The notes beneath the pieces were generated by a model. That model was not told the origin of the DNA. It did not search any database and worked only from the letters and a program-made list of their open reading frames with translations. Made by a program: the position numbers and the translations under genes. Positions 37,144 to 43,737 of a stretch of 64,000 bases of DNA are shown in pieces (the first letter of the stretch is position 1; the number at the start of each line of letters is the position of its first letter). The DNA comes from an uncultured candidate division Zixibacteria bacterium (lineage in GTDB: Bacteria; Zixibacteria; MSB-5A5; RBG-16-43-9), in NCBI GenBank assembly GCA_963713865.1, contig OY970208.1:672001-736000 (forward strand), given 5' to 3'.

Positions 37144-38049
37144 TCATTCTCCTAAGTTGCATACTGGAAACTTACTACAGGCTAAACATTCCAACTGCAA
37201 AGTGGTATGGGTAATGCCAAACTTCTCCTGCAAAATTCTATTTGCCTCTTTTAACATCTGGTCGCTTTTGCTCACCATCTGGTCCTCTATAACTAAATGC
37301 CCGGATAAAGCGTAGATCCCTGAAGATATAGTCCAGAGATGCAAATCATGCACATCCTTAACTCCTTTGATCTTCTTGATCTCCCCAGCGATAGTTTCCG
37401 CATTCAGATGTTTAGGAACCGCCTCCAAGAGTATATTACTTGACTCGGTAATCAAACCTATAGCCCCTCTCAAGATTATTCCGCCGATCAAAATTGCAAC
37501 AATCGGGTCAATTAAATAGAATTTAGTAAAAAATATAATTATCCCTGCTACTATTACTCCGATCGAAGACAAGGCGTCCCCTAAGATATGCAAGAATGCT
37601 CCTCTGATATTCAGATTACCCCTGCTTGAGCCTTTTAATATTAAGATCCCAATTATATTTACCACAAGCCCTAAGGTTGCAACTCCTAACATCAAAGGTG
37701 CTTTTATCTGCGGAGGGGCAAGAAAGCGTCTATAAGCTTCATAGAATATGTATCCAGAAATAAAAATCAAGGTTACTCCATTCAAAAGGGCAACTAAGAT
37801 TTCCGTTCTGTGAAATCCGTAGGTTCTCCTGGCATCTGCCGGTCTTCTGGATAATTTTAAAGCAAAAAAACTCAAAGCCAGGGCTAAAGTATCGGTGAGC
37901 ATATGCCCGGCATCACCGATTAGGGACAAACTACCGGATAATATCCCACCCAGAAACTCCACTAAGGTCATCAGTGCAGTTAATAATAGAGGAATTACTA
38001 AAACCTTTGGCTCAGGTTTGAAATTATTGTTGTGATTATGCTCAGACAT
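37144..38049 (-). CDS. Cation diffusion facilitator (CzcD/ZitB-like)
   Basis: SL.L..DAGHMLTD, TYGFHR.E, N.RGAFLH.LGD, VHDLHLW, HTTLQLE; start ATG 38049. Confidence 0.93.
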   Translation of the reverse strand: MSEHNHNNNFKPEPKVLVIPLLLTALMTLVEFLGGILSGSLSLIGDAGHMLTDTLALALSFFALKLSRRPADARRTYGFHRTEILVALLNGVTLIFISGYIFYEAYRRFLAPPQIKAPLMLGVATLGLVVNIIGILILKGSSRGNLNIRGAFLHILGDALSSIGVIVAGIIIFFTKFYLIDPIVAILIGGIILRGAIGLITESSNILLEAVPKHLNAETIAGEIKKIKGVKDVHDLHLWTISSGIYALSGHLVIEDQMVSKSDQMLKEANRILQEKFGITHTTLQLECLACSKFPVCNLGE

Positions 38050-38078
38050 ATTGATCTTTCGTAGCGTCCTCACTTTTT

Positions 38079-38173
38079 GTCATTGCGAGGAGTCCACAGG
38101 ACGACGAAGCAATCCGTCCCTCACAGAGTAAACAGATTGCTTCGTCTCGCCTTTGTGGCGGACTCGCAATGAC
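38079..38173. repeat. GTCATTGCGAG...CTCGCAATGAC REP-like element
   Basis: Related copies near 15609, 30152 and 31335. Confidence 0.8.
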
Positions 38174-38239
38174 AAGAGAAGATGATAGCCGCAACCTTTA
38201 GGTTGCGTAAATCCTGATTTCGCAGGCTTAAGCCTGCGG

Positions 38240-40003: not shown

Positions 40004-40692
40004 TTATTTTCTGGGACCAAAAATAGCTGTCCCAACTCTAATCATATTTGCTCCTTCCTCAATCGCCATTTCAAAATCCGAGCTCATCCCCATAGAAAGA
40101 TATTTCATCTCTACATTTTCCTTTCTCAAATTCTTCATGGACTCAAATATATTCCTTAACTTTACAAAACAGGGTCTTGCTTTTTCTAATTCATCCGTGA
40201 ATAGACCAACGGTCATCAAACCTTTTATCTTTATATTCTCCAACCTCGACACTTCTTCCACTAATCCCGAATCTCACCCGGTTTAACTCCATATTTAGAT
40301 GGCTCATTTGAGGTATTCACCTCAATTAAAACATCTGCTAACTTTCCCTTTTCTTTTGCTCTTTTTGATATCTCCCGAGCTAAATGCAGGCTATCTACGG
40401 ACTGTATCAGATCAAAAAGCTCCAGCGCCTTTTTAACTTTATTGGTCTGCAGATGCCCAACTAAATGTTTTTCGACATCTCTTTTAATAAACTTGAACTT
40501 CTCCTCAGCTTCCTGAATACGATTTTCTCCTATTATCTTTATCCCGGCATCAATTGCCTCATTTATACTCTCCGGCTCAACGTTTTTAGTTACCGCTACC
40601 AGGGTTATATCTTCCCTTTTGCGACCTGATTTTATAGCCGCTTTCTTAATCCTCTCCTCTAATCTTTTTAAATTCTCAACTAAAGAGTTCAT
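40004..40692 (-). pseudogene. yggs: Frameshifted YggS/PLP homeostasis protein
   Basis: VAVTK, GENRIQE, H.VGHLQTNK in one frame; GLMT, LSMGMSSDF, RVGTAIFG in another; one base missing near 40262-40265. Confidence 0.9.
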
Positions 40693-40749
40693 CGAATTAA
40701 ATTATTATAATATATATTTTTAATAAAAAAGCAACTGAAATTAATGTTT

Positions 40750-41390
40750 TTAGGGATAGGACGGTGTCCTGTCCTCTAAGTATTCCCTCTCCTTTTTAAG
40801 GGGAGAGCAGGGCGAGGTTTATGTAGGGGAAACCTTAAGGTTTCCCCTAAAAACAATGGAAGGTTGAAGCCTTCCGCTACAAACAAAAAACGCAGAGTCG
40901 GGATCAGGCGTTACAATTTTTTTCCTTTGAACCTTAATCCTTTTAACTATTGAACATTTATTTTGGCAGCCATTGGATGCACTTCATAGTTTGAATAACT
41001 AATACCTTTTCACTGCTCTCTTCTTTTTAAGGAGAGGAGGAATGCATAGGGGTTACCCCCTCCTTCGGCTCTGCTCAAGACGGTGCGCTTATCGAACCGT
41101 GTGGTCGCCCATTATCAGGGCAGGCACGGGGGCCTACCCCAATAATATATTTGACCTCTCCTCTCCTACGGATACCTATTGGGAAAGACCCGTTTTTCGG
41201 GAAAAGAGAGGGTAAAAAATTTTTGTAGCGTGTCCCTTTCAGATTCGTCTAAAAAAGAGACGTATTGCTATGCATCTCTACCTCTGATATTCGCAGAGGG
41301 GTGGGTAGTTTGAAGCCCACCCTTACTCCTCTTTCCCTGCGATATACCAATCATGCATTGTCACGGACGGTGCACTCCGTATATTAAAAA
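40750..41390. repeat. Non-coding tract of fragmented REP-like repeats
   Basis: Many short palindromes (e.g. TAGGGGAAACCTTAAGGTTTCCCCTA, GGAAGGTTGAAGCCTTCC); no credible ORF. Confidence 0.65.
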
Positions 41391-41502
41391 ACTGTTGACA
41401 TTTTTTTTCAAAACATTACTTTGCCTTCAAAAGTTGGGGTGAACGAAGCGCAAGGATTTAGTCTTCTCCCCTACGGGGAGGGAAAGGGAGGTGGGGTAAG
41501 GT

Positions 41503-41694
41503 ATGGAAAAAGATTTTCCAGAGTGCCTTAAGTGTAACAAAGGAATTCTTTTGCCTCTCTCCGATTATGGCAGAGAGGGTGCAAGCATAAGATATAAAGC
41601 CTGGGTTTGCTCTAACCCAGCCTGCGGATTTTCCATCCGCATAGACAACGGTGAGATAAGCTTTGGCAAGACCATAGCTAATTCTAATAAGTAA
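41503..41694 (+). CDS. 63-aa putative zinc-ribbon protein
   Basis: CxxC...CxxxxC; GGAGGTG upstream; TTGACA at 41395-41400. Confidence 0.75.
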   Translation: MEKDFPECLKCNKGILLPLSDYGREGASIRYKAWVCSNPACGFSIRIDNGEISFGKTIANSNK

Positions 41695-41801
41695 ATAATT
41701 TTTTTAGTCTTTTAAATGCGCTTCGTTCCTTCTCAACTTTATTAAGTTATTTCGGGAAACGGATCCTTCCAGTCTAGGATGGATCCAGAAGATAGGGAAA
41801 G

Positions 41802-42725
41802 ATGTGGGAGAAATTGTTGGATAATCTCTGGCTGAAATTTGGGGCGATCCTTTTAGCCTTCCTTTTGTGGTTTTATGCTTCAACTGATAAGCCTTATGAA
41901 TATACTTTCAATTACGATTTGAAATTGATTAACCTTTCCCCGGAGCTAATCTTGGCTGAACCTCTGCCGGATATGGTTAAGGTGAAAATCTATGGCAAGG
42001 GGAAGGAGCTTTTAAAGCTATTTGTTTTAAAAGAAAGAAGCTTGAAAATCGACGTTCAGAAATATTCTGGTGGAGAGTTTGAGTACCAAATTAAAGCTGA
42101 GATGGCAACTATTCCAGAGGGATTAAATCTATCAGCCATTGAGGTCGTTTCACCTAAGATCCTGAAGATCAATTTACAAAAAGTTGAAGAGAGAAAAGTT
42201 CCAATAATCTCTCAGCTTTCTTTTTCATTAGAGGAAGGTTATTTTCAGAAAGGAGAGATAAGATTTACTCCAGAGAAGGTCTGGATTAAAGGTCCATCTG
42301 AGAATGTTAACAAAATCAAATATATTCTGACCCAGAAGAAGGAATTTCAGGACTTAAGTGAATCTTTTACCGGAAAGATAGATTTAATTTCTCCACCTTT
42401 TTTTAATCTCAAGATATCGCCTCCGAGGGTTGATTTCTCTGTAGAGGTTCAAAAGGGAGAGAAGAAAAGGTTAGAGAATTTACCAATCACAATCATAAAT
42501 ATCCCCAGGGGGAGAAAAATCCACCTGACACCCAAGACTATCAATCTGGAGCTTTTGGGAGAAAAAGAAATACTTGAAAAACTTACTTTAGAGAAAATAA
42601 AAGTAATTATAGACTGTCAAGGAATAAAAAGGGGAGAGACAAAAACTTCTCCTTTGATTCAGCTTCCAGAAGATATACTACTTTTTAAGACAGAGCCAGA
42701 TAGTTTTAACTTAATTGTAAATTAG
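41802..42725 (+). CDS. YbbR/CdaR-like protein
   Basis: N..LK..A..LA.LLW N-terminal anchor, repeated P..V...G YbbR-like domains. Confidence 0.8.
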   Translation: MWEKLLDNLWLKFGAILLAFLLWFYASTDKPYEYTFNYDLKLINLSPELILAEPLPDMVKVKIYGKGKELLKLFVLKERSLKIDVQKYSGGEFEYQIKAEMATIPEGLNLSAIEVVSPKILKINLQKVEERKVPIISQLSFSLEEGYFQKGEIRFTPEKVWIKGPSENVNKIKYILTQKKEFQDLSESFTGKIDLISPPFFNLKISPPRVDFSVEVQKGEKKRLENLPITIINIPRGRKIHLTPKTINLELLGEKEILEKLTLEKIKVIIDCQGIKRGETKTSPLIQLPEDILLFKTEPDSFNLIVN

Positions 42726-42726
42726 T

Positions 42727-43737
42727 ATGCTTGTCTTAGGAATTGAAACCTCCTGCGATGAAACCTCAGTAGCTGTAATTCAGGATGGGCGGAGGATACT
42801 TTCCAATGTGGTTTTCTCCCAATGGGTTCATAAAAGATACTGGGGCGTTGTCCCAGAGCTTGCCTCCAGAGAACATATAAAGACGATTTTGCCCATTTTA
42901 AAGACTGCTCTGGATGAAGCTAAAGTCACTCTAAAGGAGATCGAGGGTATCGCGGTTACCTGTGGTCCAGGTCTGGTTGGCTCTCTTTTAATCGGGCTTT
43001 CCTTAACTAAGGGATTAGCTTATGGTTTAAAGGTCCCGTTTATCGGGATAAATCATCTTGAAGGGCATATCTTCGCCAATTTCTTAGAGTATCCTGACCT
43101 TTCACCTCCTTTGATCTGCCTTATAGTCTCTGGAGGGCACTCCACCTTAGTTTATATTAAAGATAAGGGAGAGTATAAGGTTCTGGGACGAACGAGAGAT
43201 GATGCTCCTGGGGAGGCATTTGATAAGGTGGCAAGGATTCTGGACTTAGAATATCCGGGGGGGCCTTCTATTGATAAATTAAGCCAGAGTTGCAAATCTT
43301 CTAAGATGAAATTTCCCAGAGCTTTTTTAGAAGAAGGGAGTTTTGATTTCTCTTTTAGCGGATTGAAAACTGCAGTAGCTATATATGTTTCTAAATTATC
43401 TGTAAAGGAGAAGGAGGAACAAAAGTCCTGTATAGCTAAAGGATTTCAAGAGGCAATCGTGGATGTACTCGTAGAGAAATTTTTAAAAGCTGCCATGGAA
43501 CTTAAAGTAAAGAAGATCGCTTTATCCGGAGGAGTGGCTAATAATAGTTACTTAAGGCAGAAATTGAGTCTGGAAGCTAGCAAAGAAGGGTTGGAGCTTT
43601 ATGTCCCCTCACCTGTCTTGTGTACAGACAATGCAGCCATGATAGCTTCAGCTGGTGATTTTCATCTTCAAAGAAAAGAAAGCTCTTCTCTTAATCTAAA
43701 CGCCTTTCCACATCTTCCTTTGGGTCAAAAAGTATAA
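42727..43737 (+). CDS. tsaD: tRNA threonylcarbamoyltransferase TsaD
   Basis: LGIETSCDET, GVVPELASREH, NHLEGH, VSGGH, FSFSGLKT, CTDNAAMI. Confidence 0.98.
   Translation: MLVLGIETSCDETSVAVIQDGRRILSNVVFSQWVHKRYWGVVPELASREHIKTILPILKTALDEAKVTLKEIEGIAVTCGPGLVGSLLIGLSLTKGLAYGLKVPFIGINHLEGHIFANFLEYPDLSPPLICLIVSGGHSTLVYIKDKGEYKVLGRTRDDAPGEAFDKVARILDLEYPGGPSIDKLSQSCKSSKMKFPRAFLEEGSFDFSFSGLKTAVAIYVSKLSVKEKEEQKSCIAKGFQEAIVDVLVEKFLKAAMELKVKKIALSGGVANNSYLRQKLSLEASKEGLELYVPSPVLCTDNAAMIASAGDFHLQRKESSSLNLNAFPHLPLGQKV

Follow-up and report, generated by a model that had tools for sequence, protein, structure and literature searches.

A small gene of an uncultured candidate division Zixibacteria bacterium is enclosed by two complementary sequences, one in its leader and the other a short distance behind its stop codon. 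The gene lies in a stretch of 64,000 nucleotides (contig OY970208.1, positions 672,001 to 736,000; this whole stretch is hereafter called the window, and positions are counted from its first letter). It encodes a 63-aa protein with four cysteines, is referred to below as zr, and is followed on the same strand by a ybbR-like gene and tsaD. Comparison of the sequences of related loci showed that the long-range helix formed by the two complementary sequences exists, is under selection, and is tied to zr in several lineages. The same comparison showed that the pairing is that of an RNA helix, formed on the sense strand of the zr mRNA.

The pairing in the window

An earlier reading of the window's letters (the original prediction) had claimed a 12-bp complement with a 10-bp extension, and both are present as described. 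The sequences GAACGAAGCGCA (41441-41452) and TGCGCTTCGTTC (41717-41728) are perfect reverse complements over 12 bp, and in the extension AAAGTTGGGG (41430-41439) pairs with TCTCAACTTT (41731-41740) using two G.U pairs. With T41440 and C41729/T41730 unpaired inside it, the helix amounts to 22 bp with a small internal loop. The duplex of the two arms alone has a free energy of -31.5 kcal/mol, and in the minimum free energy (MFE) structure of the RNA at 41425-41745 the long-range pairing is the closing helix (z = -4.06 relative to shuffled sequences).

The pairing in this single sequence is, by itself, within chance expectation. Perfect 12-mer inverted repeats separated by 100-500 nt number 2 in the 64 kb, the mean of first-order Markov simulations being 3.7; the only other such repeat, at 42122/42377, is located inside the ybbR-like gene. 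A crude control was also made, in which the duplexes of 100 x 100-nt flanks were compared with those of non-cognate flanks. The window's own pair gave z = -0.56 there, and z <= -2 was reached by 20 of the 28 loci of the window's order and also by 6 of 121 other loci; this measure is noisy and was set aside as evidence. Since the single-sequence pairing is not significant, the reality of the helix rests on its conservation and covariation.

Conservation and covariation in the window's order

Eighty zr loci were located in the class. The window's order contributes 28 of them, spread over the families f1, f2, f3, and f4 and some ten genera. Three further f2 genomes, in which zr is found only as fragments at contig ends, were left out. 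All 28 loci carry the leader motif G[AG][AG]CG[AG][AG]G[CT]G together with its partner after the stop codon. That homologous genes should keep complementary flanks, as the original prediction expected, thus holds throughout the order, while it fails in many other lineages.

The 28 sequences, each from 14 nt before the 5' core to 14 nt past the 3' core, were aligned with MAFFT (alignment A1), and the closing helix in the RNAalifold consensus of A1 was found to be exactly this long-range pairing. The ten core pairs (columns 15-24 with columns 375-384) are standard in 280 of the 280 cells: 265 are Watson-Crick pairs, 15 are G.U pairs, and none is A.C. Changes on both sides are seen at the column pairs 16/383 (GC 18, AU 7, GU 3), 17/382 (AU 25, GC 3), 20/379 (AU 24, GU 3, GC 1), and 23/376 (CG 25, UA 2, UG 1). 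For an 18-pair version of the helix, the covariation score was 0.243 as compared with 0.174 for the shuffles, none of the 500 shuffles reached 0.243, and the score was 0.07-0.14 when the partners were slid by 1-3 columns. The covariation analysis of aligned flanks, which the original prediction had proposed as a check, therefore supports the helix.

Beyond the core, each family extends the helix differently, and these extensions pair too. In f1, ten more pairs are added outward behind a bulge; in genus g10, five more pairs are added inward; and in f4 and most of f2, three or four contiguous pairs are added outward. The core helix is contained in the MFE structure of all 28 sequences, with a mean pair probability above 0.9 in 26 of them. 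When 200 nt of downstream RNA is added, the core probability stays above 0.5 in 25 of the 28.

One locus (L008) has a second possible partner of the 5' arm, TTTCGTTCATCCCGG (15 bp), about 65 nt past the zr stop codon, farther downstream than the regular 3' arm; it does not occur in the sister locus L005.

Two further helices, both inside the open reading frame (ORF), were considered and rejected as conserved elements, the pairing being largely a matter of coding constraint. One joins the start region AUGGAAAA (41503-41510) to UUUUCCAU (41629-41636), that is, the start codon to the FSI codons (columns 113-120/239-246 of A1); it is 95% paired in the 28 sequences, with one synonymous double change in a single genus. 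The other is a hairpin at 41554-41578, formed by the anti-Shine-Dalgarno-like CCUCUCUCC (P-L-S codons) and GGCAGAGAGG; both partners of one pair show synonymous variation, and this pair is open in 8 of the 28 cells.

A sense-strand RNA helix

From the G.U pairs in the window, the original prediction had favoured an RNA helix, and the 28 sequences bear this out. The motifs used for anchoring accepted both purines or both pyrimidines at each variable position and so introduced no bias for G.U over A.C. Nevertheless, all 15 non-Watson-Crick core cells are G.U or U.G, and the count of A.C or C.A is 0. These cells reflect about 13 separate one-sided transitions (counted by hand by genus and species, not on a tree), all of which gave G.U and none A.C. 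A DNA repeat is expected to show the two kinds of mismatch equally, and the probability of 13 out of 13 in one direction is about 1 in 8000. Moreover, the orientation of zr relative to ybbR is identical in 28 of 28 loci. The occurrence of G.U without A.C, together with the fixed orientation, indicates an RNA helix in the mRNA sense and excludes an invertible segment or paired DNA sites.

An inverted repeat acting at the DNA level (a segment that can invert, a pair of sites for a binding protein, or the ends of a mobile element) would account for arms that are inverted repeats around a discrete segment just downstream of a promoter. Against it stand the 15 G.U versus 0 A.C cells, the constant zr-ybbR orientation, and the single-copy state of the element. 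We regard this reading as extremely improbable, and DNA inversion in particular was rejected on the asymmetry and the single orientation.

In the 2.72-Mb genome there is a single copy of the 351-nt element and of each 11-mer arm. Short dispersed repeats are present in the upstream spacer, and they stop well before the arms and exclude them. The possibility raised in the original prediction that the arms are termini of a dispersed repeat was accordingly dropped. A genome-wide scan with a degenerate motif pair gave about ten weak pairs of 11-13 bp elsewhere, which were judged to be due to chance.

Position of the helix in the transcript

The features of the locus are as follows.

41395..41422, plus strand: promoter-like element (TTGACA at 41395-41400, a 16-nt spacer, and TACTTT at 41417-41422)
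41430..41452, plus strand: 5' arm (outer part 41430-41439, bulged T41440, conserved core 41441-41452)
41466..41480, plus strand: small leader hairpin CTCCCCTACGGGGAG, between the 5' arm and the Shine-Dalgarno sequence
41486..41493, plus strand: strong Shine-Dalgarno sequence GGGAGGTG, in the helix loop and unpaired with the arms
41503..41694, plus strand: zr, 63-aa Cys4 zinc-ribbon gene (cysteines C8, C11, C36, and C41)
41717..41740, plus strand: 3' arm (core 41717-41728, unpaired CT 41729-41730, outer part 41731-41740)
41802..42725, plus strand: downstream YbbR-domain gene (Pfam PF07949, E 3.4e-14)
42727..43737, plus strand: tsaD, tRNA t6A transferase subunit (TIGR03723, 419.9 bits versus a cut-off of 296.1)

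The promoter sequence that had been pointed out before the 5' arm is present, and the element TTGACA-N16/17-TAnTTT is conserved directly upstream of this arm in most of the 28 loci (by eye). The predicted starts in the order fall 0-10 nt before the first paired base (also by eye), and in the window transcription would start at about 41429-41431, on the first base of the helix. Genus g10 is an exception: TTGAC is found only in L019, and none is found in L013 and L014. The window's own promoter was not listed by a consensus promoter scan because its -10 sequence is weak.

The leader hairpin, the GGAGG sequence behind it, and the Cys4 ORF of the original prediction were likewise found, the ORF being strongly conserved. 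The hairpin CTCCCCTACGGGGAG is confined to family f1, whose other genera show hairpins of differing sequence at the same position (by eye), and f3 and f4 have none. The 3' end of the genome's 16S rRNA is GATCACCTCCTTT, and GGAGGTG is rare in this genome, preceding 20 of 1577 long ORFs. The core of the 5' arm ends 50 nt before the ATG in the window. In all 40 helix-bearing loci listed, including those of other lineages, the first base of the helix core is 36-97 nt upstream of the ATG, and the Shine-Dalgarno sequence is always clear of the core.

In the window, 22 nt lie between the zr stop codon and the 3' arm, and 61 nt between this arm and the ybbR start. A co-oriented ybbR-like gene follows zr in all 28 loci of the order, and the row zr-ybbR-tsaD is complete in all 27 loci that reach tsaD, the 28th ending inside ybbR. 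This gene order is kept across the class; the fixed row was found in Zixibacteria, KSB1, Calditrichota, and Latescibacteria, and not in Gemmatimonadota and Eisenbacteria. A terminator scan of the plus strand at 41694-41802 gave no terminator-like site, and a T run after the 3' arm occurs only in f1, none being present in f2, f3, f4, or other lineages; the 3' arm was therefore rejected as an intrinsic terminator. Because the ybbR-tsaD synteny is conserved and no terminator-like site lies between, the 3' arm is to be placed, on sequence grounds, in the intercistronic spacer before ybbR-tsaD and not at a proven transcript end. The ybbR gene is probably co-transcribed with zr. The closed-end mRNA of about 310 nt that had been proposed is thus better described as the first cistron of an operon closed by a helix. 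The zr-ybbR spacer measures 43-164 nt in loci with the helix versus about 10-50 nt in those without it.

In the sole public run that contains any of the region, a sediment metatranscriptome, 5% of the sampled words are present. It provided two short contigs of relatives, which cover 41483-41647 only and include no ends and no joints. Relatives' copies of zr thus occur in an RNA library.

The zr gene and its protein

The zr ORF is, judging from its conservation, that of a real Cys4 protein. The gene was found in 48 of 61 genomes of relatives and in 104 of 257 genomes of the phylum. The protein matches 1935 protein clusters of a large collection and at least 595 species genomes, which by the titles of the records belong to Zixibacteria, Gemmatimonadota, Latescibacterota, KSB1, Calditrichota, Eisenbacteria, and others. 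The identity to the window's protein is about 70% across these phyla. Among 23 homologues, 27 columns are invariant or nearly so, including the four cysteines and the loop LPLSDYGR(E/D)G.

No family was found for this protein above the cut-off in Pfam (DUF1936, E 0.002) or in NCBIfam. In a profile search of the PDB no match was better than E 0.06 (the Rpb9 C-terminal ribbon had E 0.076), Foldseek gave no match at E <= 0.001, and the matches in the ESM Atlas were only to clusters without names. The AlphaFold2 model (pLDDT 74) has four beta strands and a zinc-binding sheet. Its best weak fold matches are WRKY domains (Foldseek probability 0.8-0.9, TM about 0.5, E 0.65; VIA Z 4.5), followed by the NrdR zinc ribbon (VIA Z 4.0), and the best VIA-align Z of 4.5 is within noise. 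All of these fold and sequence matches are below significance. The model is compatible with a zinc-ribbon protein that possibly binds nucleic acids.

The gene is single-copy, and its product is soluble and beta-rich. These properties do not agree with the analogy to type I toxins that the original prediction had drawn. A type I toxin fold-back mRNA was rejected on the Cys4, beta-rich, soluble nature of the protein, its 27 invariant columns, and its occurrence in at least 595 species genomes.

Regarding known RNAs, the original prediction had not recognized the element as a member of a described family, and no Rfam family matched it. At the gathering score, Rfam 15 gave no match in the whole window, and an E-value search of 40600-41900 gave two chance-level matches (E 0.55 and 0.95), both away from the element. 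No tRNA or tmRNA was found by a scan for them. Neither arm matches the genome's 16S or 23S rRNA at up to 2 mismatches, and the arm motif is absent from the flanks of both rRNAs. In a scan of 49 tRNAs, matches to the arms were found only at 2 mismatches and only in three tRNAs. Taken together, the rRNA and tRNA scans gave no sign of target mimicry, which was dropped as a candidate. A full-text search of the literature gave no description of the zr gene or the helix.

Other lineages and the shared core

In the other families of the class, the best flank stems of the 52 loci are 7-16 bp long and none has the motif. In addition, 80 loci taken from a collection of species genomes (out of at least 595 species) were examined. 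The helix is present in all six that belong to the window's order and absent from 72, among them all of the Gemmatimonadota, KSB1, and Eisenbacteria loci listed. The remaining two were conspicuous for their stems, of 20 bp in L093 and 16 bp in L129. Of the 9 zr loci in relatives of L093's genome (G263), 7 carry a helix of 15-23 bp around the gene, which comes in two sequence types; of the 30 in relatives of L129's genome (G264, a Latescibacteria metagenome-assembled genome), 10 carry one of 12-19 bp. Covariation is also seen in these helices, for example from CGGATGG/CCATCCG to CGAATGG/CCATTCG. In the Latescibacteria group, L190 and L198 carry a TTGACT-N17-TAAATT promoter just before the 5' arm.

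When the loci are aligned on the pairing, an 8-bp core, GGRYGRRG/CYYCRYCC, is common to all helix-bearing lineages. Its form in the order is GGACGAAG, and the forms in other lineages are GGATGAAG, GGATGGAG, GGATGAGG, and GGGTGGGG. The commonest difference is one compensated transition, C-G in 24 and U-A in 15 of the 40 loci listed. The core table was selected by requiring eight pairs, so that it shows sequence homology and is not an independent proof of pairing. From these comparisons we conclude that the helix is old, that several lineages share it while many have lost it, and that it is not a single invention of the window's order.

The 3' arm has a peculiar position in one of these lineages, which bears on whether the helix controls access to the translation start of ybbR, be it through long-range repression or through a coupling to zr translation. 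In L093/L175, L170, and L171, the 3' arm starts 9-10 nt past the zr stop codon and holds an in-frame ybbR ATG; in f4, the ybbR start codon follows the helix by 10-13 nt (by eye); and the spacer is short where the helix is absent. However, the ybbR start comes 61 nt after the helix in the window and about 50 nt after it in group B, and the distance between the 3' arm and ybbR is not conserved (10 to more than 60 nt). Control of ybbR by the helix is improbable in our estimate.

Possible functions of the helix

The reading that we tentatively favour, with somewhat less than even confidence, is drawn by analogy with hbs mRNA: a cis-acting long-range helix in the zr-ybbR-tsaD operon mRNA would protect and insulate the first cistron. 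With the promoter immediately upstream, the first nucleotides of the transcript (the 5' arm with the core GAACGAAGCGCA) would pair with the spacer behind the first cistron, and the leader, the strong Shine-Dalgarno sequence, and the 63-codon ORF would be closed into a loop of about 265 nt. A ribosome that initiates or terminates would not touch the arms, the core being 50 nt from the ATG on one side and 22 nt from the stop codon on the other, so that translation of the enclosed ORF could proceed with the helix intact. The duplex would bury both the 5' terminus and the intercistronic spacer, and the ribosome-binding site and the ORF would be left free. The first cistron may thereby be shielded from 5'-end-dependent and endonucleolytic decay, and zr may form a separately stable, highly translated unit relative to ybbR-tsaD, just as a 14-bp pairing protects hbs mRNA. 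We infer the transcription start, the co-transcription of ybbR, and the protective or insulating effect. As to the enzymes of decay, the genome encodes RNase E/G, RNase Y, and RNase III (241.8 bits versus a cut-off of 166.25 for the last), and no match to RNase J above the cut-off was found in it.

Several points weigh against protection and insulation. The hbs partner sequence is in a true 3' untranslated region (UTR), while the 3' arm here is intercistronic. The sequence of the 8-bp core is kept across lineages that otherwise differ in their leaders, which pure protection does not explain and which points to sequence-specific recognition. In three of the 28 loci (L010, L013, and L015), the helix is lost from the predicted ensemble when the downstream RNA is added. 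The position of the 3' arm over the in-frame ybbR ATG in one lineage suggests control of the downstream gene instead. The occurrence of zr without the helix in other Zixibacteria families, Gemmatimonadota, KSB1, and others means that the helix is dispensable. Finally, the one metatranscriptome covers only part of the ORF in relatives and gives no RNA ends or half-lives.

Alternatively, RNase III may cut the leader-spacer duplex and separate zr from ybbR-tsaD, as it does with the stems of rRNA precursors, which would give the two pieces of the transcript different fates. Typical substrates of this enzyme have roughly two helical turns. The window's 22-bp helix with its small internal loop would suit such a role, the enzyme is encoded in the genome, and the 3' arm is positioned exactly at the cistron boundary. 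On the other hand, the contiguous helix is just 12-17 bp long in most relatives, which is short for the enzyme, and cleavage would remove almost nothing on the 5' side because the 5' arm is at the predicted transcript start. A precedent is provided by the 5'/3' duplex of icaR mRNA, which is an RNase III substrate according to a review (PMC7821165). All in all, we consider this processing unlikely, though it deserves some weight.

In another reading, the helix is an autoregulatory operator: the zr protein or another sequence-specific factor would bind the GGAYGAAG/CUUCRUCC duplex and control its own expression or that of the operon. The conservation of the core sequence, beyond mere pairing, among distant lineages in which the rest of the leader and spacer cannot be aligned would be understandable in this way, and so would the constant association of the helix with zr and its uniqueness in the genome. 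The kept core sequence also makes the RNA-protein module named among the possibilities of the original prediction somewhat more plausible. The best weak matches of the zr model are, moreover, nucleic-acid-binding zinc domains (WRKY, NrdR, and Rpb9), although none of these matches is significant. Most zr-bearing lineages lack the helix, so that the protein must have another target there. The rRNAs contain no copies of the arms, and the three 2-mismatch matches among the tRNAs give no sign of a mimicked target; slow compensated transitions alone could also keep the purine/pyrimidine pattern. We judge an operator to be rather unlikely, somewhat more so than cleavage by RNase III. The wider form of this idea is slightly less likely again: an ancient cross-phylum operator, in which the zr protein would recognize GGAYGAAG/CUUCRUCC and the mRNA and protein would make up a self-regulating closed-loop unit, with the sites of termination and re-initiation close to each other, perhaps cut out of the operon RNA with its ends paired.

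Comparison with known systems

The closest parallel to a protective and insulating helix is the hbs mRNA of B. subtilis. A 14-bp pairing between its 5' and 3' UTRs modulates RNase Y cleavage in the leader and protects the mRNA (Braun, Durand, Condon 2017; PMC5737220). The likeness extends to a small ORF and protein behind a strong Shine-Dalgarno sequence, to a long-range helix between the leader and the region after the stop codon that leaves the ribosome-binding site free, and to RNase Y, which acts on hbs and is encoded in the window's genome. Unlike in hbs, the 3' partner here is a spacer before two more genes, and the 5' partner coincides with the predicted 5' terminus. A review states that close relatives usually do not share functional 3' UTRs of the hbs kind (PMC7821165). 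The present helix, known here from sequence alone, is in contrast conserved with covariation across an order and recurs elsewhere.

In the icaR mRNA of S. aureus (Ruiz de los Mozos 2013, PMC3868564), translation is blocked by a UCCCC motif that pairs with the ribosome-binding site, according to the same review (PMC7821165). The two cases resemble each other in that 5' and 3' parts of one mRNA pair and the duplex is a possible RNase III substrate. They differ in the target of the pairing: here 34 nt separate the 5' arm from the Shine-Dalgarno sequence (41486-41493), which is free. The 3' arm pairs with 41430-41452 and not with the Shine-Dalgarno sequence, and a 3' UTR of the icaR type, directed against the latter, was thus excluded.

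Three other kinds of system share single features with the helix. The hok-type type I toxin mRNAs have a fold-back (fbi) pairing of the 5' end with the 3' region that closes a small ORF into a compact RNA. The 5' end likewise pairs with the 3' region around a small ORF in the present case, but the product is a conserved soluble zinc-ribbon protein of a housekeeping-like operon and not a small hydrophobic toxin, and there is no sign of the helix blocking translation. No antisense promoter was found on the minus strand of 40600-42000 by a consensus scan, which was the only method applied. In rRNA precursors, RNase III processing stems flank the rRNAs. These stems, too, are flanks that pair over hundreds of nucleotides and bracket exactly one functional unit; the unit here is, however, a protein-coding cistron, the helix is shorter, and the genome's own 16S and 23S flanks do not carry the arm motif. 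In the RNA phage MS2, the long-distance Min Jou interaction couples translation of the replicase to that of the coat protein; its upstream partner is inside the coat gene, and the pairing is opened by ribosomes. Only the L093 group is similar, in that the start region of the following cistron is paired with a sequence far upstream, and the upstream partner there is in an untranslated leader.

Other observations in the window

The spacer upstream of zr (the 40693-41400 region) is unusually long, about 800 nt, and contains only short ORFs (<60 aa). Only its last 350 nt are common to the same-genus relative L003. Short palindromic repeats are present at about 40780-40890, with at least 15 partial copies elsewhere in the genome, and a terminator-like hairpin is found on the plus strand at 41297-41324.

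On the far side of this spacer, the gene yggS (PLP-binding, TIGR00044; 40004-40692, minus strand) is divided into two ORFs that meet at 40261 and cover the profile positions 1-143 and 149-229. The split is due to a frameshift, a sequencing error, or a real break. At 38042-38194, mirror-image ORFs overlap on both strands (38077-38172 on the plus strand and 38080-38175 on the minus strand), which points to a long palindromic sequence between the genes for a CDF transporter and a purine nucleoside phosphorylase.

Significance of the helix

Few bacterial examples of an mRNA whose 5' part pairs with its 3' part are known, and these are species-specific (hbs, icaR, and RNAIII). The kind of element is therefore already known; what is new is the depth of its conservation, its conserved core, and its position closing the first cistron of an operon. 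The same helix on the same small gene was found in the entire Zixibacteria order and, with a shared 8-bp core, in two other uncultured lineages, and such comparative evidence for the end-to-end pairing of a bacterial mRNA has been missing so far. The analysis also brings to notice a 63-aa zinc-ribbon protein, so far uncharacterised, whose identity across phyla is about 70%. The element is a compact object of about 300 nt that can be transferred to a reporter, and with it one can ask whether the closure of a cistron alters its stability, its separation from the downstream genes, or the re-use of ribosomes.

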